35,899 nt of DNA from an uncultured Alphaproteobacteria bacterium (GCA_904502245.1 CAJGDN010000002.1:1-35899); one strand, 5' to 3'. Counted from the stretch's first letter, positions 5,173-32,625 are shown. A program made the numbers and translations. The notes: a model not told the origin generated them from the sequence alone.

Positions 5173-5204
5173 TTTTTGTATTTTGCACAGTTAAGGTTTA
5201 AATA

Positions 5205-6047
5205 ATGGCAAATACTATAAAATACGACGATAATTCACCTGTATTTTTATTTACAAACGAAAACATACAGGAATACATTGCAAAATCTGGTGGCGCAACA
5301 AACAAAAATATTTTGACAGTCGCCAGTTCTGGCGATCATGCGTTCGAAGCATTGTTGGCTGGCGCAAAGCGGGTTGATATATTTGATATAAACAAAATGC
5401 AAAAAGCGGTCGTAGATTTAAAATCAAAAATGATACAGCATTTGGATTACGGCGAATTTATGGATTTCTTTTTTTCAAAACGCATGCAATTTAAATTAGA
5501 ACTGTTAACCAAAATCGATCAAAACATAACCCCAGACGAAATTATATTATTATTAGATTTAACCAGTGAAAATTATCGCATTTTTGAATCTGATCGTACC
5601 ATCGAAAATACATCGTATTTACAATACAGCGATAAATACAAAGACCTGAAGGTCAAATTGCCACACAGTTTTGATTTTAAACATGTAGACATAAAACAAT
5701 TACCACATGTGATTAATCAAAAATATGATTATGTAATGCTGTCGAATATTTATGAATCAATGCCAAAAAATAAAAAGAATGAAATTGATGCAATGAACGA
5801 TTTCTATAAACAAGTTTTAAATCCACTGTCTGCAAACCTGAATGATAATGGCATAATATTCCTGGACTATATGTGGTCACCAGACGACACGCCGACAGAT
5901 CAATTCTTAAATTTCTGGAAATCTTTTTTTACTGTCATGAACAAAAAAATACAAAAACATCACAGGATGGATATATGCACCGTAAAATCAAACATGACAA
6001 ACCAACCATTTGATTTTGTCGTGCGCATGCAACAAAAATATAGGTAA
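5205..6047 (+). CDS. DUF3419/BtaA-like SAM-binding protein (short form)
   Basis: 280 aa with AAGG RBS at 5193-5196. ILTVASSGDHAFEALLAGAKRVDIFDINKMQKAVVDLKSKMIQHLDYGEFMDFF matches my recollection of the DUF3419 N-terminal SAM-binding consensus (ItSgGcNaL...VDlNpaQ...LK...L.y.eF). Confidence 0.5.
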   Translation: MANTIKYDDNSPVFLFTNENIQEYIAKSGGATNKNILTVASSGDHAFEALLAGAKRVDIFDINKMQKAVVDLKSKMIQHLDYGEFMDFFFSKRMQFKLELLTKIDQNITPDEIILLLDLTSENYRIFESDRTIENTSYLQYSDKYKDLKVKLPHSFDFKHVDIKQLPHVINQKYDYVMLSNIYESMPKNKKNEIDAMNDFYKQVLNPLSANLNDNGIIFLDYMWSPDDTPTDQFLNFWKSFFTVMNKKIQKHHRMDICTVKSNMTNQPFDFVVRMQQKYR

Positions 6048-6050
6048 AGC

Positions 6051-6079
6051 AAAAAAAACGCCCGATTGGGCGTTTTCTT
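6051..6079. terminator. bidirectional intrinsic terminator
   Basis: A8 tract, then aaacgccc-gatt-gggcgttt (8 bp stem), then a T-rich tail. It lies between the convergent DUF3419-like gene and rpmH. Confidence 0.8.
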
Positions 6080-6080
6080 A

Positions 6081-6233
6081 TTATCTGACCGCAGACACTG
6101 CAATTCTTTTGCGACCCGCTGCGCGACGACGATTCAAAACTTCGCGGCCGCCCTTGGTTTCCATTCTGGCACGGAAGCCGTGTGTACGGATACGACGTGT
6201 CTTAGAAGGCTGATATGTACGTTTTGTTGCCAT
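6081..6233 (-). CDS. rpmH: 50S ribosomal protein L34
   Basis: Not in the ORF track because it is under 60 aa. My reverse-strand translation is [50 protein letters not shown] (50 aa), the canonical L34 sequence. Confidence 0.93.
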
Positions 6234-6477
6234 GACTTAATTCCCTTAGTTCTACTTTTCTTTTTTCGTTCCGCGTGCCCGAGCAGCATCATAAGCACCC
6301 AGAAAAAATCCGTTTGTGCGTCTATTTAATCACACGAATTATAAAAACGCAACTATTTTCTTTAAATTATTTTGATTTTACCAACCCCATCTTTTTTAAG
6401 CCCTCTAAAAACAAATAATATACAAATATAGATGTTAATAATCTGTAAAATGGTAAAAACATATCTTGTACCCCTGT

Positions 6478-6669
6478 TTACTTTTGCTTTTGCTGCATTA
6501 AACGTTTAACACAACGTGCAACATCAATCATATCTATTACACGATCAATCCCCCACGCATAACATGTATAATACGCACGTACTAATCTATCATCACGCGA
6601 CGCTTCGCGGGCATCGTTAATAATCTGTTGACCTTCTTTTAAATCTTGTTTTATCTGCTCTAGTTTCAT
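6478..6669 (-). CDS. hypothetical small protein (63 aa)
   Basis: The internal ATG at 6669 is preceded by AAGGAGA. MKLEQIKQDLKEGQQIIND... looks helical. No recognisable family. Confidence 0.4.
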   Translation of the reverse strand: MKLEQIKQDLKEGQQIINDAREASRDDRLVRAYYTCYAWGIDRVIDMIDVARCVKRLMQQKQK

Positions 6670-6736
6670 CTTTATTCTCCTTATAAACATTACCACAAAC
6701 AACAGTTTTGTCAAACGTTTTTTTAACCTTTATTTC

Positions 6737-6766
6737 TTGACGAAAAGCCTATAAATCTGCTATGTT
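6737..6766 (+). promoter_or_regulatory. candidate sigma70 promoter for gyrA
   Basis: TTGACG (6737-6742), a 17-18 nt spacer, then cTATGTt (6760-6766), about 30 nt upstream of the gyrA ATG. Confidence 0.3.
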
Positions 6767-6796
6767 TTGTGTGTTATTAACAATAGGAAAGGCAGT

Positions 6797-9523
6797 ATGT
6801 CAGAAAATATCAATGAAGTGAATGAAGTAAAAGTTCCACAGTCTTCGTTGGAACACGAGATGCGAACCAGCTTCCTGGATTACGCAATGTCTGTTATCGT
6901 TGACCGCGCATTGCCAGATGTGCGCGACGGATGCAAACCTGTGCACCGCAGAATTCTGTATGTTATGAACGATGTTGCACCGGCAACAAAACCAACCGTT
7001 AAGTCTGCACGTATCGTCGGTGATGTTATGGGTAAATACCATCCACATGGCGACAGTTCTATTTATGAAGCCATGGTGCGTATGGGTCAAGACTTTTCAA
7101 TGGGCGAAATGCTGGTTCAGGGTCAGGGTAACTTTGGTTCACGCGACGGTGACAAAGCTGCGGCCATGCGTTATACTGAGGCACGCCTGTCAAAACTGGG
7201 TGCATCATTGATGGACGATATGGACAAGGATACAGTTGATTGGATGCCAAACTTTGACGGCAGCTTGCAAGAACCGGTTGTTTTGCCAACAAAATTCCCA
7301 AACTTCTTGGTAAATGGCGGTTCAGGTATTGCGGTTGGTATGGCAACAAACGTTCCAACATATAACCTGGGCGAAATTTGCAATGGTATATTGGCAATCT
7401 TGGATAATAAAAATTTAACTGACGATGAATTGTTCGGAATCATCCCAGGGCCAGACTTTCCAACAGGCGCAATGATTATGGGACACGCTGGTGCGTACAA
7501 GGCACACACAACTGGGCGCGGTTCAATCATCGTTCGTTCAAAAACACATATGGAAGATTTTCGCGATCACCAGGCAATTATCGTTGATGAAATTCCATAT
7601 CAGGTAAACAAAGCACAACTGATTATCAAAATCGCAGAATTAATCAAAGATAAACGCATCGAAGGCATTTCTGAAATTCGCGACGAATCATCCAAGGAAG
7701 GTTTACGTATCGTTATTGAATTGAAACGCGACGCAATTTCCGAAGTAGTATTGAACCACTTGTTCCAATACACAGAAATGCAGACCAGTTTCCCTGTTAA
7801 TATGATGGCACTGAACCGTGGCAAGCCGATGCTGTTTAACGTTCGTGGCGTACTGGACGCATTTATTGATTTCCGCGCCGAAGTTATTCGTCGCCGTACA
7901 ATCTTTGATTTGAACAAGGCACGCAATCGCGCACACACTTTATTAGGTCTGTCTGTTGCGGTCGGCAATTTGGACGAAGTTATAGAACTGATTAAATCCA
8001 GTCCAAATCCAGACGTCGCACGCGAAGCGTTAATTTCACGCGGATGGAAGGCATCAGATATCGAATCATATATCCAACTGATTGATGATCCAAACACAGA
8101 ATACAAGGACGGCATGTTCTATATGTCCGAAGACCAGGCGCGCGCAATTCTGGAATTACAATTACATCGTCTGACAGGACTGGAACGCGATAAAATTCAC
8201 AATGATTTAACAACATTGGGCGCAACAATTCGTGACCTGTTGGAAATTTTAGGCAGTCAGGAACGCATTGTTCAAATTATTCGCGACGAAACAACCGCTG
8301 TGCGCGACAACTGGGCATCACCACGTCGTACAGAAATTTCAGATGCAGAAATCGATATCGATATCGAAGATTTGATTGCGCGCGAAGATATGGTTATTAC
8401 CGTTTCCAACACCGGATATATTAAACGCGTCGCACTGGATACATATCGTGCACAAAAACGTGGCGGCAAAGGACGTAACGCAATGGCAACAAAAGACGAC
8501 GACTATGTTGTACAGGTATTTGTTGCAAACACACATACACCATTGCTGTTCTTCAGTTCCAAGGGTCTGTGTTATAAATTAAAAACATATAAATTACCAG
8601 AAGCCGCGGCAGCTGCCAAGGGACGACCATTGGTAAATCTGTTACCACTGGAAAACGGAGAAACAATTACTGCGATTTTGCCAGTATCCGAAGAAGACGC
8701 TGCACGCGTGGCAGAATCAGACAAAGAACACTTCTTGATGTTTGCGACTGCATCGGGTACCGTACGCCGTAACCGTATGTCTGATTTCGATTCAATTCGC
8801 GCAAATGGAAAAATCGCAATGAAACTGGATGAAGGCGACAGCTTGATTTCTGTTATGCCATGTACCGAAGACCAAGATGTATTCTTGGCCACATATCGCG
8901 GTCGCGCAATTCGATTCCCTGTGCCAGAAATTCGCGTATTCGCCGGCCGCAATTCAACCGGTGTACGCGGTATCACGCTGGGCGCAGATGACCGTATTAT
9001 CGGCATGTCAATGCTGAATCGCGGTGAATCTGATTCATCTGTACGCGCAGCATATATCAAGCAATCACGTGCCGCACGCCGTGCAGAAACAGGTATTGAA
9101 GAAGAAGCAGACGCAGACGAAGAAGAAACAACAATCGTTCTGAGTGATGAAAAAATGGCCGAAATGGCAGCACGCGAAGAATTTATTCTGACCATTTCTG
9201 AAAACGGTTTCGGCAAACGCACCAGTTCGTACGAATACCGTCTGACACATCGTGGTGGTGGTGGATTTACCAACATCAAACTGGGTGGAAAAAATACGGC
9301 TGTGGCCGGTTCGTTCCCAGTTGAAGATGACCATGATATTATCATGGTAACAGATGGTGGTAAAATCATTCGCACGCCAGTAGACGACGTTCGCATCGCA
9401 GGTCGCAGCACCGCCGGCGTTACATTGTTCCGCACTGCGGATAATGAAAAAGTCGTATCTGCCATTTCTATTGAAGGCGCAGACGAAGAAGAAGCAACAG
9501 AAGAAACAATAGTTTCAGAATAA
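6797..9523 (+). CDS. gyrA: DNA gyrase subunit A
   Basis: Start taken at MSENINEV. It has the canonical N-terminus ([30 protein letters not shown]) and active-site [10 protein letters not shown]. The C-terminal domain is beta-pinwheel-like, with an acidic insert and an acidic tail. Confidence 0.95.
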
Positions 9524-11402: not shown

Positions 11403-12124
11403 ATCGTGCGAATAACACGACAAAATGTCACACCATAAACCGCCGATGCGCCGGCACGCATCAAAACACGACGCAATTCTTGGAATGTCGCACCCGTTGT
11501 CATAACATCATCAACCAATAAAATTTTGCAACCACGAATCTTGGAAGGATTTACCACACTGAATACACCATGAATATTTTCTATTCTTTGGCGTGCATTC
11601 TTGTGTCCCATGTCTGGACGAAACTTTCTGCGAACAGAATCCAAATCCATTGTCACACCAATCGCCCGGGCAATTGGACGCGCCAGTAAAGTTGCCTGAT
11701 TATAACCGCGTTTAAATAAACGACGCGACGCCAGCGGCACAGGCATAACAACATCTATATCCGCCACATCAATATCACGCAATGCCCATATCATCGCACG
11801 TGACATAAAACGCGCATATTTTATTCGACCTCCATGCTTGAACGGCAACATCGCTGAACGTGACGCAGAATCATACACACAAGCACTGCGAATCCAATCT
11901 AATTCATTACTGCCGGCTGCACAATTCGGACACAGCGGCGCACCAGACAAATCTAAATCTGACGGAAACGGGTAACCACACCGCATACAATACGGCCATT
12001 CTATCCAATTCATTGATGTCCAACATTCGGCACACAATTCACCATGAATGGATACCGGCGCATCACAAAGTGGACACGCCGGAGGAAATAAAAACTCGAC
12101 AATCTTGTTAAATAATTTTACCAC
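11399..12124 (-). CDS. comF: ComF-family protein (phosphoribosyltransferase domain)
   Basis: GTG start. N-terminal Cys clusters CPLCD...CAECW...CMRCG...CPNC. C-terminal PRTase signature ILLVDDVMTTGAT. Confidence 0.85.
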   Translation of the reverse strand: MVKLFNKIVEFLFPPACPLCDAPVSIHGELCAECWTSMNWIEWPYCMRCGYPFPSDLDLSGAPLCPNCAAGSNELDWIRSACVYDSASRSAMLPFKHGGRIKYARFMSRAMIWALRDIDVADIDVVMPVPLASRRLFKRGYNQATLLARPIARAIGVTMDLDSVRRKFRPDMGHKNARQRIENIHGVFSVVNPSKIRGCKILLVDDVMTTGATFQELRRVLMRAGASAVYGVTFCRVIRTI

Positions 12125-13431
12125 GACATACTTTTATAAGTCTTCTTAGAAACCGTATCACCAAACATATTACGCGACTGTTTGGTCAACGTTTCATATT
12201 CGTCACCAGATATAATACGCAGAACAAAACTGGACTCGTCACGATTTGACAGAACAGGTACAATACGTTGCTTTGCCACACCGTTATCTGTTAAGGCCTG
12301 CTCAATAATCGCCAGACGACGCGCAGCCAATTTTCGTTCATCTGCGTTCTGGGTCATATATTGTGGAATACCAATCTGAATTGCCCGGGTTGGTTTATTG
12401 ACAACGACACCAGCATATTCGGTTAACAATCTGTAATTTTCGCGCGACAAGGCAGAATCCGCATTGCGAAATTTAATTTTTATTTCTAAAGCACGAATTC
12501 CAGAACCTTCTGACAAATCATGTTTTGCTGTAAAACCTTCGACAGATGATGACATATCGCTGGCCGTGTCAAAACGCGAATCAATAGAAAACGTTGAAAG
12601 ATGCTTGTTTTCAGACAAAAAGGTCTTGCGAAACGCGCGACGCAATTCATTTGGATTCATTTTTGTCATATCTTCACGAACAGATGCAATACGCGGTGAT
12701 TTAGTTTTTTCAACCGTACGCGTAACAACATCAGGCGTATCCATCGGCACAACCATACGATGCAAAGATACCGTTTCTTGGGTCTTGGGCGCAGCCGTTG
12801 CAACACGAACCGGCGTAACATCTGTTTTCTTTTCCGCAATTGGCGACGATATTACATTACGCGATATTACAGGCGCACTGTCATTTGCGGCACGCTGCAT
12901 TTCAGACAATCGTGCAATCTGGACATCTAATTCAGATTTATCAGATTCTACGCGTGCAGTCTGAACAGGACGCGGCGCTACACTGGTCTTGTTTACTGTT
13001 TTTGTAGCAGGCACAACAGTTTCAACGGTTGCGAATTTTTGGTCTAAACTCTCCTCTGGTAAAACAGAATCCGTGCGAATTACCGAAAATTCATTCGGCA
13101 TTGGCATACGAAGCGACGAATCGTTTTTCGCCCACAAATCATTGCTGGGGCGACGTGGTGTTAACACGTCGCTTGTCGCGACAATCTGGGCACCAGAATC
13201 AACCGTTTTGGCTGGCGTGGCAGTACGCGCAACAACACGCTTGGCACGGGTTGGCGCAGCCTGTTTCTTTTGTGCAACAGAAACATTTTTAACAGGCACA
13301 TCTGCCCCTTCGCCAAATGCAGCACGCGCAGATACACCACCCGAGGCGATATTCACCACAGGCAAACGAGTTCCCGCAACCGCAGGCAATACAACAAATA
13401 CCGACAATACACTGATTGTAAAACGACGCAT
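12118..13431 (-). CDS. exported protein with a long low-complexity linker and a degenerate OmpA-like (peptidoglycan-binding) C-terminal domain
   Basis: Start moved to MRRFTISVLSVFVVLPAVAG (signal peptide), with AAGGGAAG RBS upstream. The C-terminus IKFRNADSALSRENYRLLTEYAGVV...RKLAARRLAIIEQALTDNGVAKQRI follows the OmpA_C pattern (F..gSa.L......L...a...., ..LS..RA..V...L...GV...RI). Confidence 0.45.
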   Translation of the reverse strand: MRRFTISVLSVFVVLPAVAGTRLPVVNIASGGVSARAAFGEGADVPVKNVSVAQKKQAAPTRAKRVVARTATPAKTVDSGAQIVATSDVLTPRRPSNDLWAKNDSSLRMPMPNEFSVIRTDSVLPEESLDQKFATVETVVPATKTVNKTSVAPRPVQTARVESDKSELDVQIARLSEMQRAANDSAPVISRNVISSPIAEKKTDVTPVRVATAAPKTQETVSLHRMVVPMDTPDVVTRTVEKTKSPRIASVREDMTKMNPNELRRAFRKTFLSENKHLSTFSIDSRFDTASDMSSSVEGFTAKHDLSEGSGIRALEIKIKFRNADSALSRENYRLLTEYAGVVVNKPTRAIQIGIPQYMTQNADERKLAARRLAIIEQALTDNGVAKQRIVPVLSNRDESSFVLRIISGDEYETLTKQSRNMFGDTVSKKTYKSMSW

Positions 13432-13511
13432 TTCTTCTTCCCTTCTGGTGTTATCATAGAACAAATGTCGAATCGTGCGCAAGCAGAAAAATGATTTTAC
13501 AGAAAAAATTA

Positions 13512-19030: not shown

Positions 19031-19735
19031 TTATAATTCAACCTTGCCATTTGTGGCAACCAGGTCTGCCATCATTTCAATATGACCACCCGCTTCGCGT
19101 ACAATCAAATCACCCGCGGCAATTTCTGCGAAATCTAATGGATCAGATACAAACGCATCCAGCTTTCCCGCCGCAACCCACGCCAAATCCAATGCCGGAC
19201 AACCTGTGCGACGAACATCGCCAATCATTGGACGCGCATCTGATGTATTGTATGCAATCGTTAATTCCGATGGTTCTGATAAATTTGAAACCTTGATACG
19301 TGCAGAATGATACGCCGAGAAGATATATGCACCACGTTCACTTTCTGCGTAATACAATCTTTCGTCAATCGGTGAATAGATTAATGCAATTTTGGTTTCA
19401 TCATTTGAACGCAACGCCAACGATATCGCAAAATGTGGATTGCCACGCACAAAGTTTGATGCACCCGACAGTGACAAAACAAATTCATCACGACCATCCC
19501 CGGCACGTGATACATTCGGTGTCAACAAACCCGCAGCTGGGCGAACCAACAACAAATCGTTCAAAATACTTTCTTCGATTCGATTCGCAGCCTTTTGTAC
19601 AAAATCACGCGCGCCACGCAATGACTGTTGCAGGTTTTCTACTTCGCCAAAATCACGACGCAGACCAGACGCGGTGCGCTGCAACGCCATAAACATTTTG
19701 TTTAATTCAGTCGAACCTTTTATCAACAGTTCCAT
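19031..19735 (-). CDS. inositol monophosphatase/SuhB-family protein with degenerate catalytic motifs
   Basis: The family fold is recognisable: RDFGEVENLQ, NFVRGNPHFAISLAL, RRTGCPALDLAWVAAGKLDAF, IAAGDLIVREAGG. The EE(S/G), DPxDGT and WD motifs are replaced (see findings). Confidence 0.7.
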   Translation of the reverse strand: MELLIKGSTELNKMFMALQRTASGLRRDFGEVENLQQSLRGARDFVQKAANRIEESILNDLLLVRPAAGLLTPNVSRAGDGRDEFVLSLSGASNFVRGNPHFAISLALRSNDETKIALIYSPIDERLYYAESERGAYIFSAYHSARIKVSNLSEPSELTIAYNTSDARPMIGDVRRTGCPALDLAWVAAGKLDAFVSDPLDFAEIAAGDLIVREAGGHIEMMADLVATNGKVEL

Positions 19736-19765: not shown

Positions 19766-19978
19766 TTAGAAGTTAAAGCCAGCAAATTTGCTTTTGAATT
19801 CAGCTGCACGCTGACCTTTGTCACCGGCGTTTGAACGCTGACCAGTCCAGGCAGAATGGTTCAAATTGTCAGTTGACAATAACAAGTCTTTTTTTACAGA
19901 TGAATACATTTTAATTGTTTTACCATCAGTTCTGGTAACGTTAATTTCGTGGTATTCTGGATGAATTCCTTGTTTCAT
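19766..19978 (-). CDS. rpmE: 50S ribosomal protein L31
   Basis: MKQGIHPEYHEINV... and HSAWTG are both typical of L31. 70 aa. Confidence 0.9.
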   Translation of the reverse strand: MKQGIHPEYHEINVTRTDGKTIKMYSSVKKDLLLSTDNLNHSAWTGQRSNAGDKGQRAAEFKSKFAGFNF

Positions 19979-20053: not shown

Positions 20054-20563
20054 TTAATATTGACCAATGCAGCCCAGATATGAATTGCCGGTCGATTCTA
20101 GAACATTAATAAACTGGGACTGATTATGCCCAGAAAATAACGCTAAAATCGTCCCAGTATTCGTTGCCAACATGTCCGTCACAGTCGCAATCCCTGAATT
20201 CATCTTCTTGAAAAAACCACTGGACGGATAGATTTCTGCCGCCAGCAGCTGGGTTCGACCACGTGATTTACATGTTTGTCTGGATTCAATTACCATTAAT
20301 TGACATTCAGGGGATATAATCAGCTTGTCACAAACAACCGCATCACCCCCCAACAATTCCCCCCACCAGCCAGTAGACCCACAGAACACAGGGTAATAAA
20401 TTGCCGCGTTCGGATTTGCAGATAACACCGCAGATATATCAATATCATCAGCACAAACATCAGGCATTATGCCGGTTGTACTGTTTATAACTTTGCGTGC
20501 CAACTGATATTCAGAATCACCAGTTGTCTTGCGTGGCCAATAAAGAATCGGAAACTTCGTCAT
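20054..20563 (-). CDS. hypothetical protein (169 aa), co-oriented with and immediately downstream of membrane paralogue P1
   Basis: Long ORF with no signal peptide. No family recognised by eye. Confidence 0.45.
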   Translation of the reverse strand: MTKFPILYWPRKTTGDSEYQLARKVINSTTGIMPDVCADDIDISAVLSANPNAAIYYPVFCGSTGWWGELLGGDAVVCDKLIISPECQLMVIESRQTCKSRGRTQLLAAEIYPSSGFFKKMNSGIATVTDMLATNTGTILALFSGHNQSQFINVLESTGNSYLGCIGQY

Positions 20564-20631
20564 TGCTATGAATTATATCAGATTCGTACCTAACAAAAAA
20601 GGGGGGCGTGTTAAATAAAGGACTTGATTTT

Positions 20632-21930
20632 TTATTTTTTCATAACTTCGTACCATTTTTTCAGGTTTTTCCATACAATATCGATGTTATTTTTTGTAGT
20701 TTTATAGAAGTCGTCTGATATTTGGACATTGAATAACGTCTTGGCCAATGCCGGAATCATATTCATAAACATCGCAACAAATATACCCATTAATATTATC
20801 GTTATTAACGAATCATTACGCATCATTAATGCATCCATTAATATTTTAGCACCATCCGATTCGGATGCACTTAACGCCGCCTGCAATGTTGTCGCCCCAC
20901 CCCAATCGCCAAATATCGCATTCAAAAACATTATAACAAAAGAAACAAAGATACCTGTCACCGCCAAGCCCAGAGTACCGTTAATAACATTATCAATTAT
21001 CCCACGAATCGTTTTCCCAGCCCCTGATAAAGATATCTGCCAACCTTTGAACAACCACGCCAATAACATCAGTGGCAACATCACTAAATCCAGCGATAAT
21101 TTAATAAATATTTCTAAGAAATACAGCGGAATTGGTATTAATGCCATAAAGAACAACACCAACACCAACAATCCAGCAAATAAAATTGGAATATTTGGAA
21201 AAATTGGAATATCCCACATAATCTTGTGCATATAATCAGAATTAAACGACATATTTAACATCGTCCAACCAACCGTCATCCCCAAACCTGTCATCTGATG
21301 CACACCCGCCAATTCGCACGCTAAATTATGTCGAAGACGTGGAGAAAACGCACCCTGTTTCGCCGCATTTACATCAATAGACGTAGGATCTGCAATCGCA
21401 GTTGCAATAACACACGCATCAAACGAATCGTCATGCACAACCGCACGATTTAATGATAAACCAATGTTAAATATAGGTTGAATCGCAATTTCGGAAACCA
21501 TACGTGGCAGTGGTGCAACCAACAGCGCACAGACGAACGCCAACTTTACACAATGGTTTGTAAAAGTACTGACAATTGACCAAGGGGCTTCGACCTTGGA
21601 ATTTAAATAATTACTGGTCAGGCGCCACGCAAAAAATACGGCAGTTAAAATAACCGCAAATGGAACAATCGTCTTGCCCAATGCATCGTAAATACGCGGC
21701 AAAATACGTGACATGGTAAGCATTATGTCAGAAAACATGTTACACGACCAACAGCTGGAAAAAAATTTGTATGCATCTGCCATATCAACCGGCGAAAAAG
21801 ATCGATAGATAGAAAAACCAGCAATAACACCAACACCCGCAATCCCACCAACAATCAATGGCGCAGCCGCCCCAGCCGTAAATGGCAGAAACGATAAAAA
21901 TATTATCCAAAATTTTTTTATTCGATTCAT
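20632..21930 (-). CDS. polytopic membrane protein, paralogue P1 (TrbL/VirB6-like)
   Basis: Start placed at MNRIKKFWIIFLSFLPFTAGAAA (signal-like); 21948 is an alternative. It has a CWSC-NMFSDIM N-terminal motif, several TM helices, the core helix LDLVMLPLMLLAWLFKGW and a Lys-rich tail. Confidence 0.6.
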   Translation of the reverse strand: MNRIKKFWIIFLSFLPFTAGAAAPLIVGGIAGVGVIAGFSIYRSFSPVDMADAYKFFSSCWSCNMFSDIMLTMSRILPRIYDALGKTIVPFAVILTAVFFAWRLTSNYLNSKVEAPWSIVSTFTNHCVKLAFVCALLVAPLPRMVSEIAIQPIFNIGLSLNRAVVHDDSFDACVIATAIADPTSIDVNAAKQGAFSPRLRHNLACELAGVHQMTGLGMTVGWTMLNMSFNSDYMHKIMWDIPIFPNIPILFAGLLVLVLFFMALIPIPLYFLEIFIKLSLDLVMLPLMLLAWLFKGWQISLSGAGKTIRGIIDNVINGTLGLAVTGIFVSFVIMFLNAIFGDWGGATTLQAALSASESDGAKILMDALMMRNDSLITIILMGIFVAMFMNMIPALAKTLFNVQISDDFYKTTKNNIDIVWKNLKKWYEVMKK

Positions 21931-21938
21931 TGCTATTA

Positions 21939-21972
21939 AGTATATCATATTTTGTCCCAAATGTGATATAAT
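21939..21972. promoter_or_regulatory. back-to-back extended -10 elements forming an imperfect inverted repeat in the P1/P2 divergent region
   Basis: Plus strand: TGaTATAAT (21964-21972), about 27 nt upstream of the P2 ATG. Minus strand: TGaTATACT (21947-21939). The arms agtatatcatat and atgtgatataat match at 10 of 12 positions as reverse complements. Confidence 0.4.
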
Positions 21973-21998
21973 TGAAAAGATAAATATAAAAAGAGAGA

Positions 21999-23270
21999 AT
22001 GTTTTATAAAAAAATATTGTTAAAAGCGTTGTATTTCGGGGCATTTTTAATTATGCCGGCTGTTGCACACGCCAGTGTCGTTGATACGTTAAATCTGGCA
22101 CCATTTGTCCCAATGGTATTGGACGCATTGATGATGACCGCCACAGGAATATACGAATATTTTGTCGGAGATGGAAATCACGTTGGTTTTATTAACATAT
22201 TAGTTTGGACGTTTTTAGGAATCACAATAACATTAGGCTTGGTAAAAATGTATTTCCCAAAAAGCGCACTGTCTTTTCTGGGGATGTCGGGTGGCGGTGA
22301 AATGTTGGACGGCAAGGTTAATGCATACAAATTAATCGAAGATACATTAAAACCATGTTTGCGTGCAGTTATAGCATCGCTGGTTTTACTGCAATTAAAA
22401 CCAGTGTTTTTAACTGAATGGTTGGTAAATCCATTCTTACAACTGGGGGCAAATTACACCCACCAAATAACAGGAACTATTAATGAAGTAAATCCAGATG
22501 CAAAAACAGTAGAATGCCCAACAGAAATATTAGAAAAAAAATGGATTAGCGAAGATTCATGCAAGTTCTTGGTCCAACCTGTATACGATTTATCCAGCGC
22601 AAACAACCAAATTGTAAAGCGCGGATTTGATTTCTTGTTCGAAGGAATGCGCGGTCTGATGACTTTGGTACCACATGGCAGCGAAGGCTTTCTGAATGTC
22701 GTGACAGGTATTATTTTAATATCAACATTTGTGGCATCAAACTTATTTATGGCACTGTTGGTAATCCAAGGTATATTTAATTTCGGCATACAATTAATTT
22801 TATACCCGTTCTATGTTTTAACATATGTGTTCAAAAAAAGTGACAAATGGTTTGATGTTTGGCCGGCTTTTGGTGGAATAACCAAAGCATTACAACAATT
22901 GATTATAACAATGATAGCGTGCGCATTTATACTGTGTATTAATATAGCCGTCATCAAAGCTCTGTTTAATTGGAATTCTTCTGTGTTTGTTGTTGCCGCT
23001 GGTGGCAGCGCACACAGCAATATACCAACAATGGCAAGCGCACCAATTGGATTTGGTGGTCATTCTGTAATGTGGCTGTCTGCGATAATGACATTCTATT
23101 TAATGTTTAAGATATTCGATATGACACAAACACAATTAAGAACATATATCGGCAGTGGTATGGATGGACTGTACAAGGATGTAATAGGCGATTCTAAAAC
23201 ATTGTTCAAAGACGCCAAGGATTTTGGCAAAAAAATCGGCAAAGCCGCAGGGTGGATAAAAGGAAAATGA
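21999..23270 (+). CDS. polytopic membrane protein, paralogue P2 (TrbL/VirB6-like)
   Basis: 423 aa. Signal peptide ending AVAHA/S. The core segment LILYPFYVLTYVFKKSDKWFDVW resembles the TrbL/VirB6 conserved helix. Lys-rich tail. Confidence 0.6.
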   Translation: MFYKKILLKALYFGAFLIMPAVAHASVVDTLNLAPFVPMVLDALMMTATGIYEYFVGDGNHVGFINILVWTFLGITITLGLVKMYFPKSALSFLGMSGGGEMLDGKVNAYKLIEDTLKPCLRAVIASLVLLQLKPVFLTEWLVNPFLQLGANYTHQITGTINEVNPDAKTVECPTEILEKKWISEDSCKFLVQPVYDLSSANNQIVKRGFDFLFEGMRGLMTLVPHGSEGFLNVVTGIILISTFVASNLFMALLVIQGIFNFGIQLILYPFYVLTYVFKKSDKWFDVWPAFGGITKALQQLIITMIACAFILCINIAVIKALFNWNSSVFVVAAGGSAHSNIPTMASAPIGFGGHSVMWLSAIMTFYLMFKIFDMTQTQLRTYIGSGMDGLYKDVIGDSKTLFKDAKDFGKKIGKAAGWIKGK

Positions 23271-24457
23271 CAGATACAATGATGTCTTTGGTTGGCGACA
23301 CCGTGCAGTGTTGGGGCTGCCCAGTGTTTGATAGACTGTTTCAAATCATATCTGCGGCTGCAACAGGTTTCTATGAATATTTCAGTGACATGTGCCTGAT
23401 TCTGTTTCTGGCAATGTTCACAGTGTATGCGATTAATGCAATTTGGCAAAATTTCAAAAGTAATTTTGCAGACCCATGGTATAAAAAGTCAGTTCAAAAG
23501 GTTTTCATAAACTCAATCGTAGCAATCAGCCTGATGGGCACGGGTGTTATATTACCACGTTTTATCACAACAGTAACTTTTGAACCTGTGGCACAGATAA
23601 CTTTAACGTACACACAAGCAATGATAAACCAAACCCAAAAAGACGTTGACGAACGGGTGACATACCAACCTGTAAAAATGCAAGAAGATGGTTTTTATAG
23701 ACCAGAACTGCGCAATAAAATTATAGATTTAATGAAAACAACAATTACACAATTCCAGAGTTATATTAAACTGGGGATTGCAGTGATGGATAGTGCATTT
23801 TCATGGAACGCATTGTTGGGGGTTGGCGCATTAATAAAACATATTGTATTGTTCTTTATCGGATTATATTTGGCACAGGGATTTTTCAGATTATTTTTCA
23901 AATATTGCTGTTATTTTGCAGACGCTATTGTTGCAATGGCTTTCTTTGCATTTTTCTTTCCATTATCATTAGCAACATTTGCATTTAATGGTGCAGAAAA
24001 CGTACCAGAAATTATAAAAAAAATTGGTAAAAATGTCGGCGTAAACCAGATTAAAAATTTAATCAGTTCAATTGTCACATTGGGTTCTGTGGTTATAACA
24101 TACACAGTTATTATGGCAATTATTGCAAAATTCTTTTCTGCAACAGATGTCAGTAATGTAGAACTGATGAATGCAATTACCAGCGGAAAAATATTTGACA
24201 AAGATTTAAGTTCAGAAAACTTGGAAGCCTTGACATTAACCAGTTGTGTTGCACTGATGTATGTCTTGACATATGTGTATAAGCAAATACCACAGATTAC
24301 AAAAATGATACTGGGCGCTTTTGCAGTTGAAGAAAAAAATGAATACGGCGACAAACTTGCAGACAATTTAATGAAACTGACAAAAAACATTGTTGATACA
24401 ACCGTTAATGTTGGTAAAATAATCATAAACAGCGACAAAAAAAAGGATTCTAAATAA
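23267..24457 (+). CDS. polytopic membrane protein, paralogue P3 (TrbL/VirB6-like)
   Basis: The ATG at 23267 overlaps the P2 stop (ATGA) and follows AAAGGAAA. CWGC-PVFDRLF N-terminal motif, multiple TM helices and a Lys-rich tail. Confidence 0.6.
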   Translation: MTDTMMSLVGDTVQCWGCPVFDRLFQIISAAATGFYEYFSDMCLILFLAMFTVYAINAIWQNFKSNFADPWYKKSVQKVFINSIVAISLMGTGVILPRFITTVTFEPVAQITLTYTQAMINQTQKDVDERVTYQPVKMQEDGFYRPELRNKIIDLMKTTITQFQSYIKLGIAVMDSAFSWNALLGVGALIKHIVLFFIGLYLAQGFFRLFFKYCCYFADAIVAMAFFAFFFPLSLATFAFNGAENVPEIIKKIGKNVGVNQIKNLISSIVTLGSVVITYTVIMAIIAKFFSATDVSNVELMNAITSGKIFDKDLSSENLEALTLTSCVALMYVLTYVYKQIPQITKMILGAFAVEEKNEYGDKLADNLMKLTKNIVDTTVNVGKIIINSDKKKDSK

Positions 24458-25950
24458 TGTGGAAGGCACAACTGATTTTGATTGCAGTCAGGGTTTTAAT
24501 GTGTCTAATCGCATTAGGATTGGGTATATGGTATTTATCGTCTTCTATTGGTGGCGCCGCATTAACATATACCAGCGCAGATAATTTTATGACTGCAATC
24601 GGGGCGCACAACGGCGATATATCGACCGTAAACGGATGTTTTATGTGCGGATATATTGCGGATTTGTTTTCCATCATTGGAAATGCGGCCGAAAGATTTT
24701 GGGATGTAATGGTTGATAACCTATGGATTATTATGGTCTTGGGATTAGGCATATATGTCTTTATCCACACTGTAAAACACATATTTAATGCTGCAAAACA
24801 AACCGCAAATTTAGACGGTAAAGAAACAGGTATAGATTTTAAATCTTGGTTTGAACCAATCAGCAAACAAGCCCTGCGGTTAATGTTAGTTGGTGCCGTT
24901 ATGGGCGTACTGGGGCTGGGGGGGAGCACCGCACTAAAAACAGTTTCACAAATTACAATTACACCTGTTTTATATGTTGGCGCAGAACTGGGTATGGCTG
25001 CGACAGGTGTAAGTAATGCGGCACAGTGTGGCGCACTAACACCAACCGAAAAAACAGGCGACACATCAGATATATTGAATCCAATTCTGCAACCATTTAT
25101 GTGTGTTATGGGAAACATTAATTCTGTTATGTTGGCAGGGGCCGCTGGTGGTTTTGCGATGATGAACTATGCCTGGCTGGGGATGGGTGGCGGCGCATTT
25201 ACATGGTTGGCAGGACTGACCCTGGTGCTGATGTTTCTGATTATCGGATTTGATTTATTCTTTCAAATTTTATCAGTGGTATTCAAACTGGTGTTCTTAA
25301 TTGTATTCTTGCCGTTCCTGTTGGCTGCGTATGCATATGAACCCGTTTGGTCCAAGGCCAGTGGCTTAATGAGCAAATCGGTTGGGATGCTGGCTTCATC
25401 AGCGGTGCGATTGGTTGCAATTACATTAAAAGTTTTGGTTATTTACGCGACTGTTTCGTATACCGCCGATGCATTTATGCCAGGCCCCACAGATGGATAC
25501 AGTGCAATATTGCCACCATTATTGACAGACGCACCAGAAAATCCAGACGCAAAAACAATGTCTGTTATGCAGGTATTTTCTGACTGTGAACGCGTATCAC
25601 TGATTGATGGTCAAATGGACAAAGATAAATTTACAAATTGCTTTACCGCACGCAAGGCAGAAGTAGAAAGACAATACCCCGGCGCGTTTGATTTCTTGGG
25701 TGATGGGTTCGATTTTCTGCTGATGATGATGTGCTTGTTCTTTTTGTATTACTATGCAATAAGTCCAAAAATTGATAAAATGTTGCCAGCTGGTACTGTT
25801 AAATTACCAATCCCAGGCGAAGAAGCAAATGTTAGCAGCAAAGAAGAGTTTGATTATGGCGCATGGATTCATGACCTGGGACAGAAAATATGGCATGTTC
25901 CAGAACAAATCGCTAAAAAAGCAACCGAAAAAATGGGTAAGAAAAGTTAA
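24457..25950 (+). CDS. polytopic membrane protein, paralogue P4 (TrbL/VirB6-like)
   Basis: The start overlaps the P3 stop (TAATG). CFMC-GYIADLF motif, core helix LVFLIVFLPFLLAAYAYEPVW and a Lys-rich tail. Confidence 0.6.
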   Translation: MWKAQLILIAVRVLMCLIALGLGIWYLSSSIGGAALTYTSADNFMTAIGAHNGDISTVNGCFMCGYIADLFSIIGNAAERFWDVMVDNLWIIMVLGLGIYVFIHTVKHIFNAAKQTANLDGKETGIDFKSWFEPISKQALRLMLVGAVMGVLGLGGSTALKTVSQITITPVLYVGAELGMAATGVSNAAQCGALTPTEKTGDTSDILNPILQPFMCVMGNINSVMLAGAAGGFAMMNYAWLGMGGGAFTWLAGLTLVLMFLIIGFDLFFQILSVVFKLVFLIVFLPFLLAAYAYEPVWSKASGLMSKSVGMLASSAVRLVAITLKVLVIYATVSYTADAFMPGPTDGYSAILPPLLTDAPENPDAKTMSVMQVFSDCERVSLIDGQMDKDKFTNCFTARKAEVERQYPGAFDFLGDGFDFLLMMMCLFFLYYYAISPKIDKMLPAGTVKLPIPGEEANVSSKEEFDYGAWIHDLGQKIWHVPEQIAKKATEKMGKKS

Positions 25951-25955
25951 TTCAT

Positions 25956-27245
25956 ATGAAGATAATTCGCAGATTTTTATCCGTAATAATTATGATACTG
26001 TGCCTGGGGGGGACAGCATTTGCTGCATCATCAAATTTGCCGGCAGCTGATATTGGCGATTATGGCACATGGGCAACAGAAAATAATAAAAAAAGATTTA
26101 TTGAAAATGTATCAAGCGATATAACCAATTTCCAGGATGACTTTCAAAAACAAATAATTGGGAATTATGTCCCGATAGAAGCCAAAGCAGGATTAGCGTT
26201 TATGAATGCGTTCTCGTTTATTTCGCGTGTTTTGGATACTTCTTTGGTACGATTTGTTATATTATTTATTATATTGGCGTATACATTTTGGGTGGCCTTT
26301 GAATCTTACACAATTATAACGGGCAAAAACAAACCTTATGACAAAGTTGTAGAAATCTTAAAAAAAGGTCTGATGGTTGTAATTTGGACTGGAATACTGT
26401 CTATTGGTCCAGCAGAAACGTTTATGATGGTAATGACGCCAATTCTGCGCGCTGCAACTTATACGTCTAATGGAATACTAGACATGGTATCAAGTGTCGT
26501 TGGAACAAAATTGCCGGACACATGTAATGCGATACGCGAATATGCCACAACACACATATCAGATACAAATATTTTACCGCCTGATGCGGCCGCAGATATT
26601 ATGTGTCTGCCAACACGATTGTCTGGATTCTGTTATACCGCAATCGCCGTCGGATGGCGTTGGATGATTGGCGGAATTGGTAACAGCGCATTTACATTCC
26701 TGTGTGGCGGCGCTTTTGTTGCTGGGTTCTTGTACCTGGCATGGCGCTTTGCCTTTATTGCATTTGGGGTTGTGGCCGATTTATTCCTGGGGGTTATGAT
26801 GCTGCCGTTTACTGCCGTTGCTGAAACCATCGGTAAAACATCGTACAAGGGTATCGCAGGCGATATCTTCAATACATTTATGGGAATTTTCAAAGCAGAA
26901 TCTTTACAGACACAGATTATGCGTTTTGTTAATGCCGCATTACACTTTATCGTATTGGCTGTTGTTATCGCTGTTGCGTCTGGATTATTGTCAGGGTTAA
27001 TCGATTTAAATTCTGGTACAGTACTGCCTGATTATAATACATCTGAATTCTGGATTTCGATATTGATGGCTGCTTTGACATGGTATCTGGCCAGCAATGC
27101 AATGAAAATTGCCACAGAATATGGTGGCGCAATAAATACTGCGATGGGCGACACATTAGAAAACGATACAAAAACATTGTTTAACAAAACCAAAGAAACA
27201 GCAACCAAATGGTTGAAGATTATTAAAAACGGTGGAAAAAAATAA
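25956..27245 (+). CDS. polytopic membrane protein, paralogue P5 (TrbL/VirB6-like)
   Basis: Starts 5 nt after the P4 stop. Signal peptide MKIIRRFLSVIIMILCLGGTAFA. Core helix ADLFLGVMMLPFTAVAE and a Lys-rich tail. Confidence 0.55.
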   Translation: MKIIRRFLSVIIMILCLGGTAFAASSNLPAADIGDYGTWATENNKKRFIENVSSDITNFQDDFQKQIIGNYVPIEAKAGLAFMNAFSFISRVLDTSLVRFVILFIILAYTFWVAFESYTIITGKNKPYDKVVEILKKGLMVVIWTGILSIGPAETFMMVMTPILRAATYTSNGILDMVSSVVGTKLPDTCNAIREYATTHISDTNILPPDAAADIMCLPTRLSGFCYTAIAVGWRWMIGGIGNSAFTFLCGGAFVAGFLYLAWRFAFIAFGVVADLFLGVMMLPFTAVAETIGKTSYKGIAGDIFNTFMGIFKAESLQTQIMRFVNAALHFIVLAVVIAVASGLLSGLIDLNSGTVLPDYNTSEFWISILMAALTWYLASNAMKIATEYGGAINTAMGDTLENDTKTLFNKTKETATKWLKIIKNGGKK

Positions 27246-27251
27246 TATAAA

Positions 27252-27280
27252 TAAAAACGGCGTTTGCCGTCTTTATTTAT
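27252..27280. terminator. weak bidirectional terminator between the P5 and dnaQ 3' ends
   Basis: acggc-gttt-gccgt (5 bp stem), flanked by an A5 tract and T-rich sequence. Confidence 0.45.
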
Positions 27281-27950
27281 TTATTTCTGCAATAAACTTC
27301 TCGTGATTTTCTAATTCTTCGGGATGTGGTTCAAATTTACGGTATGGAAACCCATCGCCAATTTTGGGATGCGCCAACATGGCCGCATGTTGTTTCGCGA
27401 TTATTTCAGAAACATCAGGTGCAGGCGCTGTGTTATCCAACTCAATATAAACTTTGGCCAGAATTTCTGAGTCAATTAATGCACCGTGCGCATCCGCACG
27501 TGCAGTCAATGAAATACCATACCATTTTGCCAGCGCATCCAAAGTATAACTTTTTGGACCAAAAACACGATTGCGTGCAATAACCAATGAATCCATCTGC
27601 TGAGCTCGTGGAATCTGGGGCAGATTCAACATTGCTAATTCATGATTTACAAACGGAAAGTCAAAGTCCAGACCGTTGTGCGCGACAATCGGACTGTCTC
27701 CAATAAAAGCCAAGAACTTTGGTGCGATTTCTGACATTTTGGGCTTGTCTTCCAAAAACGCGTTTGAAATTTTATGAACCGCATAGGTATCTGGTGGAAT
27801 AATTTTACCTTCGGGATTAATATATTCATGGAATGTATTGTCAGTTATTTTTCCATCAACAACTTCAACTGCACCAATTTCAATTACGCGATCGCCACGC
27901 ATGTATTCAAATCCAGTGGTTTCAATGTCAAAACAAATAATACGCGCCAT
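27273..27950 (-). CDS. dnaQ: DNA polymerase III epsilon subunit (3'-5' exonuclease)
   Basis: 225 aa. Exo I ICFDIETTG, Exo II VAHNGLDFDFPF and Exo III HGALIDSEILAKVY. Confidence 0.88.
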   Translation of the reverse strand: MARIICFDIETTGFEYMRGDRVIEIGAVEVVDGKITDNTFHEYINPEGKIIPPDTYAVHKISNAFLEDKPKMSEIAPKFLAFIGDSPIVAHNGLDFDFPFVNHELAMLNLPQIPRAQQMDSLVIARNRVFGPKSYTLDALAKWYGISLTARADAHGALIDSEILAKVYIELDNTAPAPDVSEIIAKQHAAMLAHPKIGDGFPYRKFEPHPEELENHEKFIAEINK

Positions 27951-30206: not shown

Positions 30207-30235
30207 TAAAAATCCCCCAATCGGGGGATTTTTTA
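30207..30235. terminator. bidirectional intrinsic terminator
   Basis: aatccccc-aatc-gggggatt (8 bp stem), with an A-tract before and a T-run after. It lies between convergent genes. Confidence 0.8.
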
Positions 30236-32398
30236 GTTGGCTTTTTCACGATTTTGTTCAAACCAGTTGCGGATGTCTTCGACGCCAGAGTCTATCAGGC
30301 ATTTCTCGCGCATCGCAGCGGAATCTGTGCTGGTGCGAACATCAATATCTTTTACATCATCTACCCCTGTACCTTTCAGGATTTCGTTCAGGGTTATGAT
30401 ATTGCGGCATGTGTTCGTTTCATAATCCTGAGTATTACTACATTTGTCGCTGTCCGCCTTGTCAATAACAGCCTTGAACTGAGATGTGGATGGTGTACAA
30501 ATCATTTCTTCATAGCAATGCGGAACATTTGCAACCTGGGAACAATATGTCTTGATACGCGCATCTGGCCACGAAGGATTAGTTGACAGCTGTGTTTCAT
30601 AACAATCATAGATTTCACTGAAACATTCGTTAAAGTTTGTACCCGCTTCGATTGCAGCTGCTAAGACAGATTCTTTTTCAGCAGTCGCAAATTCCAGACG
30701 CTTTTGCTGCAACGCCTGTTGAGCAGCAACCTTTTGATAACTGATATTCTGGGCAGATGTACGCAATTGTTCACCATACAGGTCACAATCTGCATTTGCA
30801 TCCAATGCGTATTTTTGCATAATGCTGCGACGTGCGTCCGCAACCGGCCCACGCAATTCAGAATACGGATCACCATTTGATGATGTATAACCAAAACAGG
30901 TCGCAGAATTCGATGCTGTATAACCAGTGTTTGGCACCACAAAGTTCAATTCATAGGTACCACTGTTATTAACACTAATCACACTGTTGTAATTATATGG
31001 ACACTGGGCGGCACCATTGCCACATTTGCGCGCACCAGACGGTGGCATACCACACGCTTCGTAAATACCGTTAAAGCATGAATCCAGAACACGTGAACAT
31101 ACATTATTATGCGCATATTCGAATAATTCATACCCCCATGTTTCTGCCAATGAATCTTTTAAATTATCAGCATCAGCCAATGCACCACCAATACCAGACA
31201 GTCCATTAACAACATTTGCTAGGTTACTATATGCAGAAGTTAAATTTTCTGTATTATCTTTAGTAATAGTTAATGTTCTTTCTTTGGCATCTGCCCAAGA
31301 CTGTAACTGCGCCAGGATTGTTGAACCGCTGCCATCCAAACGACTTACATCAAAGCCAAAGTCGTTTCCACTTTCTGAACAATAGCTTGGCATTGTTGTA
31401 TTAGAACATTTAGAATTATCATAGTACCCGTGAGACTGACACCATTCGGTAGCATCGTCTTTGCCATTTTCATTACTGTCTTTATTGGCCGTATACCGAT
31501 CTGCCATATCCTGCCATGAAACACAGTTCATAACTTTTTCTGCATCGGTTAACTGAAATGCCTCGGAAACATCTTTACCCTTGTTCGCAATCAAAAGCGC
31601 CAATTCACCAGACACCTTAATTAATTCTTCGTTGGCTGTTTCCAGTTGTGATTCAGCCTCAGCGAATGCCTTGACACGACCAGCACAGGCACAACGACGC
31701 TGGGCCGCGTTACGCGCGGTACAAATTTCATCCATACATGTATAATACGATTCCATACAGTTATTGTATGCTTCATTTGAAATCAATCCTGTTGTTGAAT
31801 CCAAAATATTTGCATAATTTCCTGTATTCAATTTACTGGACAATGTGGAATAAGAATAACTGCTTTTTGTAGAGCCACGGATGCCCGCACTGGCCATTGA
31901 TGCACGCGACGTGTTAACCACAGGATTTGATGCAGTCCGTGCACGTACACTGCGTGTGTTACGGGCATTGGCACGAGATGTCGCCGCCGTCGCACGTGAA
32001 ACGACATTGCGAACACCACCAGCATTGGCACGAGATGTCGCCGCCGTCGCACGGTTAATTGTTGCACGGGATGTCACCCCACGCGATGATACTGCACGTG
32101 ATGGGGCAACGTTATCAGAAACAACATTCTTTGGCACAACCGCTGCACGCGACATAACTTCACGCGTTGCAGTTGTACGCGTCGCGTTCGAACGCGGATT
32201 AGAACGATTGGCTGCACGCGTTGATTGTGCACGACCATTTTGCACACGTGCATTAGCAATATCATTAATTGGTGCAATTGGATCTGCAAACACCGAACGA
32301 ATTGAAAACAATGTCGAACAAACAAAAAACGCACCAGCCAGTAAAAATACTGTGCTCATGGCATTCTTGAAAGAATTTGCGATTTTTTGACTTTTCAT
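30233..32398 (-). CDS. exported or membrane-anchored cysteine-rich protein with an Arg/Ser/Thr/Ala/Asn-rich repeat region
   Basis: Start moved to MKSQKIANSFKNAMSTVFLLAGAFFVCSTLF (AGGGAGAG RBS upstream). About 160 aa of basic low-complexity sequence, including two RATAATSRANA copies. Then about 520 aa with 24 Cys and a predicted coiled-coil stretch. No family recognised. Confidence 0.6.
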   Translation of the reverse strand: MKSQKIANSFKNAMSTVFLLAGAFFVCSTLFSIRSVFADPIAPINDIANARVQNGRAQSTRAANRSNPRSNATRTTATREVMSRAAVVPKNVVSDNVAPSRAVSSRGVTSRATINRATAATSRANAGGVRNVVSRATAATSRANARNTRSVRARTASNPVVNTSRASMASAGIRGSTKSSYSYSTLSSKLNTGNYANILDSTTGLISNEAYNNCMESYYTCMDEICTARNAAQRRCACAGRVKAFAEAESQLETANEELIKVSGELALLIANKGKDVSEAFQLTDAEKVMNCVSWQDMADRYTANKDSNENGKDDATEWCQSHGYYDNSKCSNTTMPSYCSESGNDFGFDVSRLDGSGSTILAQLQSWADAKERTLTITKDNTENLTSAYSNLANVVNGLSGIGGALADADNLKDSLAETWGYELFEYAHNNVCSRVLDSCFNGIYEACGMPPSGARKCGNGAAQCPYNYNSVISVNNSGTYELNFVVPNTGYTASNSATCFGYTSSNGDPYSELRGPVADARRSIMQKYALDANADCDLYGEQLRTSAQNISYQKVAAQQALQQKRLEFATAEKESVLAAAIEAGTNFNECFSEIYDCYETQLSTNPSWPDARIKTYCSQVANVPHCYEEMICTPSTSQFKAVIDKADSDKCSNTQDYETNTCRNIITLNEILKGTGVDDVKDIDVRTSTDSAAMREKCLIDSGVEDIRNWFEQNREKAN
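31965..32053. repeat. in-frame direct repeat: a perfect 32 nt unit twice, with 57 nt period
   Basis: gcattggcacgagatgtcgccgccgtcgcacg occurs at 31965-31996 and again at 32022-32053. It encodes RATAATSRANA on the minus strand. Confidence 0.85.
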
Positions 32399-32625
32399 AA
32401 AACTCTCCCTGTGTTCCGGGAAACGCCCAGAAACCCGACCTTTCCGAGACACAACACCATATAGATGCATGTCTATTTTATTTGATTATAGCAATTTTTT
32501 TTAGGTCTGTAAACAGTTTAGTGTACAGGATTCACTAATATATTTTCCAGGAATAGCATCAAATAGATAAACATATGAATGTGTATATAATTGTGATATG
32601 AACATGACAATAAATTACAGTTTTT

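Follow-up and report, generated by a model that had tools for sequence, protein, structure and literature searches.

Five ancient VirB6-like paralogues form a conserved chromosomal array in Candidatus Enterousia and are candidates for a hetero-pentameric secretion base

We analyzed a 35,899-nt stretch of DNA from an uncultured Alphaproteobacteria bacterium (GCA_904502245.1, CAJGDN010000002.1:1-35899; hereafter the window, i.e., the whole stretch at its full length). Between rpmE (19766–19978, − strand) and dnaQ (27273–27950, −) it carries an array of five genes for polytopic membrane proteins, P1 to P5, together with U169, a gene for a protein of 169 amino acids (aa). An earlier reading of the sequence alone, the original prediction, had described the five as a compact array of TrbL/VirB6-like paralogues with no other secretion genes nearby. 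As set out below, P1–P5 very probably are strongly diverged members of the TrbL/VirB6 superfamily, and we lean towards the view that they form the hetero-pentameric base of an apparatus of the T4SS (type IV secretion system) kind.

All six open reading frames (ORFs) were found in the window where the original prediction had put them, between rpmE and dnaQ, and the gene junctions and the extra gene behind P1 were also as it had described them. P1 fills slot 1 on the − strand, at 20632–21930 or 20632–21948 depending on its start (432–438 aa; the public gene call has 438 aa). In Candidatus Enterousia, from which nearly all closely related loci come, this probable VirB6/TrbL-superfamily protein is inverted relative to P2–P5, which follow on the + strand in slots 2 to 5. 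P2 (21999–23270, 423 aa) has a signal peptide and is the protein in which the VirB6 'P-x17-W' motif is best kept. P3 (23267–24457, 396 aa) is without a signal peptide and carries an N-terminal CWGC motif, P4 (24457–25950, 497 aa) occupies the slot best conserved between lineages, and P5 (25956–27245, 429 aa), with a signal peptide and no Trp, is the fastest-evolving of the five. P2–P5 are translationally coupled, i.e., P2 and P3 share an ATGA overlap, P3 and P4 a TAATG overlap, and P4 and P5 are separated by a 5-nt gap. A bidirectional hairpin terminator (27247–27280) with a 15-bp stem and a T-run on both strands closes this unit and is shared with the convergent dnaQ. P1 and P2 diverge from an AT-rich intergenic region (21949–21998), a spacer of 50–68 bp depending on the P1 start. 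Promoters for both transcription units are presumed to lie there, and only presumed, because promoter-like matches in the spacer were not above the shuffled expectation.

Hydropathy analysis yielded one layout common to P1–P5, in agreement with the multispanning architecture, amphipathic N-terminus and Lys-rich tail predicted for them. Each protein begins with a signal peptide or anchor, except in P3, followed by an amphipathic N-terminal segment that contains a CxxC in P1, P3 and P4. Two transmembrane (TM) helices and a hydrophilic, Cys-containing loop of about 100 aa make up the middle part. A cluster of three to four TM helices then leads into a Lys/Arg-rich tail with 8–12 Lys plus Arg residues.

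For comparison between species we used a genome collection in which 170 species-level stretches encode a relative; the locus counts given below refer to the best 80 of these 170. Family profiles for P1–P5 were built from these 80 loci with about 78 sequences per family. The five had been called paralogues, and in pairwise comparison the P1–P3 pair alone was significant, at 18% identity across 379 aa and E-values of about 1e-8 to 1e-10. Profile–profile comparison linked all five families in collinear, near-full-length alignments, with 97.6% for P1–P3, 95.3% for P2–P5, 89% for P1–P5, 81.5% for P4–P5, 79% for P3–P4 and 74% for P1–P4. A joint alignment of 150 sequences contains five invariant columns, P152, G221, G253, F260 and P286 in P1 numbering. 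Because the family profiles connect all five collinearly while only P1–P3 is clear in pairwise comparison, and because of the five invariant columns, we conclude that the paralogy, as judged from sequence, is real but remote and old.

As judged from profile scores, P1–P5 lie outside Pfam TrbL (PF04610) as currently modelled. P3 homologues number 1030 in a collection of 5.8 billion proteins and none has a Pfam domain; all named ones are called "hypothetical protein [Alphaproteobacteria bacterium]", and none of the 240 listed orthologues has an entry in its precomputed Pfam field. With the P3 profile, an exhaustive search through 1.84 billion representatives matched only 99 proteins. Among the weak matches over the full length, P0316 (34.2 bits) and P0321 (26.3 bits) score with Pfam TrbL above its gathering score of 25.9 bits, and P0328 falls just below it. 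In P0328, the matches to TrbL and to plasmid VirB6 (about residues 514–624) are nested in a near-full-length match to the P1 profile (331–671). By this nesting, the TrbL core maps onto the TM cluster behind the loop, which holds the invariant Gly, Phe and Pro residues.

The relationship became visible from the VirB6 side in an iterative hidden Markov model (HMM) search of 2720 local ORFs seeded only with plasmid VirB6, i.e., with 11 genuine proteins, R388 TrwI and ten others. In the first round, P0316 and two Enterousia P5 orthologues were matched (P5 E 4e-4 to 7e-4), and 28 of about 33 sub-threshold hits were P5, P3 or other array proteins, all in the same register. The second round included all P5 sequences, and by the fourth all five families and every distant array protein had been recruited with essentially no decoys. 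Reversed VirB6 seeds taken through the same procedure recruited nothing in five rounds. Moreover, a pooled superfamily profile, free of VirB6 sequences, aligned with the profile of the 11 plasmid proteins in hhalign at 87.6–91.3% (E about 1e-6), over 247 collinear columns that correspond to TrwI residues 32–278. In the controls, the reversed VirB6 profile scored 0.3–0.4%, and FtsW, MraY and VIT1 scored at most 0.3%. Matched with single VirB6 sequences, an insensitive comparison, the superfamily profile gave 0.2–6.6%.

Predicted structures point in the same direction. A Foldseek search of the PDB with the AlphaFold2 model of P3 returned TrwI/VirB6 of R388 as the top four hits (probability 0.97–1.0, TM-score 0.39–0.47). 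With the P1 model, TrwI chains made up five of the top six hits (probability 1.00, TM-score 0.55–0.58, E 6e-3 to 3e-2). The VirB6 fold, a long-helix bundle as in R388 TrwI, is thus present in P1 and P3 as modelled.

The alignments place the "GP" of VirB6 on the single invariant Pro of the whole superfamily, which is also invariant in 43–44 distant members. Trp in the conserved TM/cytoplasmic core of VirB6 is both essential and invariant (Gillespie et al. 2009, PMC2653234), and in the plasmid proteins it stands at +18 after the Pro (GP-x17-W) in 11 of 11 sequences. The original prediction had compared P2 LYPFYVLTYVFKKSDKWFDVW with a VirB6 segment GPLFIL...F.DRWF; this motif was correct, with the Trp at +18 in both. 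Across the loci, Pro270 of P2 is invariant (80 of 80) and the Trp at +18 is present in 79 of 80, with exactly the spacing of plasmid VirB6. Pro232 of P3 is likewise invariant, and a Trp at +17, found in 68 of 81 orthologues, is the likely counterpart of the essential VirB6 residue. In P4, Pro286 and a Trp at +12 are invariant (80 of 80). P1 has its invariant Pro286 followed by Trp at +6 and +11, and in P5 Pro284 is invariant (78 of 78). The transitive, iterative, profile–profile, motif and fold lines of evidence agree with each other.

Almost all of the best 80 of the 170 stretches are gut metagenome-assembled genomes of Candidatus Enterousia, and a closed chromosome of 958,618 bp is among them. 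Enterousia belongs to the uncultured order Rs-D84, has genomes of 0.75–1.0 Mb and lacks a tricarboxylic acid cycle and respiration as well as the standard transporters for sugars, amino acids and peptides; it is thought to be partner-dependent, and many of its membrane proteins are unexplained (PMC12306168). The block of an inositol-monophosphatase-family gene (IMPase, SuhB-like; 19031–19735, − in the window), U169 and P1, diverging from P2-P3-P4-P5, is kept in order and orientation in about 75 of the 80 loci, while rearrangement is seen in its flanks, which hold PBP1A, dnaQ/uvrD and an unknown gene of 745 aa. The original prediction had proposed synteny in relatives as a check on whether the array is a standard virB6 cluster; adjacency to virB3/virB4 was not seen in any of the roughly 87 loci examined, which represent at least seven lineages. 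The P proteins have a median identity to the window of 49–66%, with P5 at 49%, versus 82–85% for IMPase and DnaQ. Despite this faster evolution than their neighbours, none of P1–P5 has been lost.

U169 (20054–20563, −) lies between P1 and rpmE in Enterousia, downstream of P1, and is syntenic in 73 of 80 loci. Its product is Cys-rich, with no predicted signal peptide or TM helix and with a median identity of 76%, above that of P1–P5. A scan against Pfam and NCBIfam found no family, and comparison with the P1–P5 family profiles showed it to be unrelated to them. Arrays of the distant lineages described below do not contain U169, and its membership in the system is uncertain. We did not adopt U169 as a VirB5- or pilin-like partner, given that it has no signal peptide or TM helix and no homologue in distant arrays; its only match, a fimbrial-like one, was at noise level (E 0.023). 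In about 73 of 80 Enterousia loci the IMPase gene is connected to the array through U169 and rpmE. As IMPase is missing from distant arrays, this linkage probably reflects simple synteny at the genus level.

The same array is carried by uncultured Alphaproteobacteria that are less closely related, among them one with the label "Rickettsiales bacterium". Locus L098 has P1-P2-P3-P4-P5 in order on one strand, with the P1 orthologue first and co-directional. Five tandem paralogues of 470–900 aa are present in each of L093, L094 and L097, and L107 has four within the stretch read. Overall, the distant relatives measure 470–990 aa, and a few have weak TrbL matches. Slot-by-slot best matches form clean diagonals between Enterousia and L098, between L093 and L097 and between L094 and L097, and slot 4 pairs with slot 4 in every inter-lineage comparison. 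The five-fold duplication therefore predates these lineages, with every slot representing an orthologue of its own. That all five are kept in genomes below 1 Mb argues against redundancy.

The distant arrays offer some hints of an envelope or T4SS context. A Peptidase_M23 domain (peptidoglycan endopeptidase) is fused C-terminally to the last array member in L097 (10517–13213, +) and L107 (11407–14367, +), a further Peptidase_M23 fusion lies in L095 (1938–3899, +), and P0335 also has this domain. In the P0321 lineage, which belongs to related gut Alphaproteobacteria, a gene for a TrbC/VirB2-type pilin (L099, 10949–11305, −) lies about 10 kb from the array. Its product has a signal peptide and a two-TM hairpin, and the gene stands alone among housekeeping genes, which resembles the scattered style of Rickettsiales T4SS genes. 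A few kb away, L099 also encodes a 668-aa ankyrin-repeat protein (4935–6941, +); ankyrin-repeat proteins are typical T4SS effectors in host-associated bacteria.

Several further genes accompany these arrays. Those in L093, L094 and L097 are headed by an ORF of 71–88 aa (L093 9734–10000, L094 4967–5227, L097 2887–3102, and also L105 65–331, all +), which encodes a two-TM hairpin with a basic tail, i.e., a VirB3-like topology, and which has no equivalent in Enterousia. A Pfam scan of these leader ORFs gave no VirB3 match and only noise, so that an identity as VirB3 is without sequence support. On the divergent strand lie accessory genes (L093 5811–9659, L098 3562–7212, L094 1567–4889, L096 5633–9884, L097 1–2903, all −). 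Three families are conserved among them, A of about 500–700 aa, B, a membrane protein of 270–420 aa, and C of 170–190 aa, often with an RHH_4 protein nearby. Their Pfam scan gave only noise and no recognisable domain; they could be unrecognised partners of a VirB6-like ring. A faint OmpA match is seen in the gene that follows the L094 array.

The surroundings of the array in the window are ordinary chromosome, with an autotransporter, gyrA, the mraY-ftsW-murG cell-wall genes, PBP1A, the IMPase-family gene, rpmE, dnaQ and uvrD. A 745-aa ORF (30233–32470, −) has no Pfam match and does not resemble the accessory genes that accompany distant arrays; in many Enterousia loci an orthologue, or at times a pair of them, adjoins dnaQ/uvrD near the array. 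A 454-aa ORF with a TTG start (12118–13482, −) and no Pfam match at E ≤ 1e-3 is flanked by murG and by a gene for a ComF-like phosphoribosyltransferase, at the position in the cell-wall cluster where a Mur ligase would be expected. At the window's edge, an 86-aa ORF with two hydrophobic segments (35–295, +) adjoins the 1022-aa autotransporter (355–3423, −; beta-domain E 1.4e-28) and was also gene-called on two further independent contigs (L100, L101).

The closest known system is the rvh T4SS of Rickettsiales, which has RvhB6a–e as five tandem VirB6 paralogues, or four in Anaplasmataceae and Wolbachia, and whose T4SS genes are scattered (PMC2653234). As there, five tandem VirB6-family paralogues are found here in Alphaproteobacteria with reduced genomes, arrayed orthologues are conserved across lineages, the distant relatives are similarly enlarged, and other T4SS genes, if present, are scattered. 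The RvhB6 array directly follows rvhB3-rvhB4, and its proteins measure 674–1154 aa (PMC2653234). In contrast, no virB3-virB4 lies upstream here, and in Enterousia it is the divergent P1 that precedes P2. The Enterousia proteins are about half the size, with 396–497 aa, confirming that they are much shorter than RvhB6, as the original prediction had stated. They are not recognised by TrbL, whereas RvhB6 is recognised and has flanking extensions. Their host order, Rs-D84, is from the gut, not known to be intracellular and not Rickettsiales. Since the array is rvh-like, yet differs in virB3-virB4 context, size, TrbL visibility and host, we rate it as a variant of the known VirB6 array type and not as a categorically new system.

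With R388 TrwI and other VirB6 proteins of mating-pair formation type T (MPF-T), P1–P5 share a periplasmic N-terminal helix, then two TM helices, a loop some 100 aa long, a cluster of TM helices and a basic tail in the cytoplasm, as well as the invariant Pro in the helix after the loop; the Trp that follows it by about 18 residues keeps this spacing exactly in P2. They differ in an identity of only about 13–14%, in remaining undetected by the Pfam TrbL model, and in having five distinct copies instead of one. Moreover, a signal peptide or anchor is present in four of them and an N-terminal CxxC in three. There is no flanking virB5, eex or virB8, and the neighbourhood is chromosomal housekeeping, unlike that of a conjugative element. 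The N-terminal domain of F-type TraG (TraG_N), a polytopic inner-membrane T4SS component, falls into a similar size class; for P1–P5, however, fold and profile evidence favours the P-type VirB6.

In the R388 T4SS, a VirB6 pentamer inserted in the inner membrane forms the stalk's base, where pilins are proposed to be assembled (PMC9259494). With this precedent, a hetero-pentameric base is the best mechanistic reading of the array. P2–P5 would be produced jointly by a single coupled operon, with P1 expressed from the divergent promoter, and one copy of each would assemble into a hetero-pentameric VirB6 ring as the inner-membrane base of a stalk. The ring would serve an envelope-spanning, contact-dependent apparatus of T4SS type, whose other parts may lie at other places in the genome, in the scattered manner of Rickettsiales, or may be too diverged to be recognised. 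Through it, a partner-dependent bacterium without ordinary transporters could exchange material with its partner. That P1–P5 are five ancient, non-redundant VirB6 paralogues forming such a base is the explanation we favor, if by no wide measure of confidence, and within it a full but scattered T4SS is the preferred sub-case.

A number of results weigh against this reading and have to be set beside it. The original prediction had looked to a significant match with TrbL or TraG_N for the VirB6 assignment. No family was found by hmmscan of P1–P5 against Pfam and NCBIfam at E ≤ 1, TrbL included, and TraG_N in Pfam likewise gave no match at E ≤ 1; taken by itself, this outcome speaks for giving up VirB6. 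Neither phmmer of P3 nor the superfamily profile matched the VirB6 chains among PDB sequences. Single-family profiles reached no more than 5.8% in hhalign against the 11-sequence VirB6 profile, which is not significant, and detection of the relationship hence needed the pooling of families. Of the two readings that the original prediction had offered, a compact VirB6 array uncoupled from virB3/virB4 and a new membrane-protein family, the first is supported, but by pooled-profile, iterative, transitive, motif and fold evidence and not by direct recognition through TrbL. The AlphaFold2 models are of moderate confidence only, with a predicted local distance difference test score (pLDDT) of 63.5 for P3 and 62.5 for P1, and the Foldseek E-values for both are weak (6e-3 to 4e-2). 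P5 has no Trp at all, and in the window's own P3 an Ile near residue 249 replaces the Trp at +17.

Also the genomic context offers objections. No secretion-system genes were found within the whole window, and VirB3, B4, B5, B8–11 and D4 were not found in the window or in related Enterousia loci totalling 1.59 Mb. In six distant lineages (L093–L098, L107), no canonical T4SS gene was found up to 10 kb from the array. The earlier statement that no other secretion genes lie nearby consequently holds for the window, about 80 related species and six more distant lineages. The Enterousia result comes from a tblastn search of the window and the 80 Enterousia loci with R388 VirB1–B11 and D4 and with TrbC pilin, which found nothing and is insensitive to diverged proteins. 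The published metabolic reconstruction of Enterousia names no secretion system (PMC12306168). Finally, it is from copy number and gene order only that we infer the hetero-pentamer.

The same context would suit a stand-alone inner-membrane channel or platform derived from VirB6, re-purposed for uptake or exchange of metabolites or lipids and operating with neither T4SS ATPases nor an outer-membrane core. In none of the roughly 87 loci examined is there a T4SS gene near the array, the distant arrays bring their own conserved, unrecognisable accessory genes and not VirB genes, and the Enterousia genome paper combines missing standard transporters and unexplained membrane proteins with no reported secretion system (PMC12306168). 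Rickettsiales T4SS genes are, however, scattered (PMC2653234), so that absence near the array says little, and a related lineage does have a TrbC/VirB2 pilin gene. We regard this channel as possible, though on the whole unlikely; no VirB6 is known to act without VirB4. One form of it would be an envelope machine not recognised before, a hetero-pentameric ring with one subunit per slot, working without VirB4-type ATPases in partner-dependent, transporter-poor Alphaproteobacteria. We consider this form doubtful. If true, it would also explain the four to five VirB6 paralogues of Rickettsiales, i.e., the stalk base there became hetero-oligomeric.

Alternatively, each paralogue could build its own homopentamer, used under different conditions or for different substrates. 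The VirB6 duplicates of Rickettsiales have been called "presumably functionally redundant" and their role "a mystery" (PMC12407924), and the paralogues evolve fairly fast, with median identities of 49–66%. The translational coupling of P2–P5 argues for equal co-production instead, and the one-to-one retention of five slots over deep divergence in genomes below 1 Mb also speaks against separate homopentamers, which we hold to be improbable. That P1–P5 are a new polytopic family unrelated to VirB6, with convergent topology and chance hydrophobic matches, would account for the missing direct matches in Pfam, NCBIfam and PDB sequences, for the non-significant single-family comparisons and for the low confidence of the structural models. 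It would leave the transitive TrbL matches, the iterative search with its reversed control, the 88–91% in hhalign, the invariant Pro, the Trp at +18 in P2 and the two predicted folds, all in the same register, to coincidence, while unrelated polytopic proteins score at most 0.3%. We therefore judge this explanation very improbable, and retain the hetero-pentameric VirB6 base of a T4SS-type apparatus as our working proposal.

On the strength of the superfamily assignment, well over a thousand "hypothetical" proteins of gut metagenomes would form a very diverged branch of VirB6 that is missed by current Pfam and NCBIfam models. Five ordered, slot-orthologous paralogues, with P2–P5 co-translated, match the five-fold symmetry of the R388 VirB6 stalk base. 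The hetero-pentamer is hence proposed as a testable answer to the question why rvh-type systems keep four or five VirB6 copies. Should the rest of a T4SS truly be absent, the array would be the first case of a machine derived from VirB6 that functions independently. As Enterousia and its relatives have genomes below 1 Mb and neither respiration nor ordinary nutrient transporters, the array is a prime candidate for the interaction of these bacteria with their partner cells.

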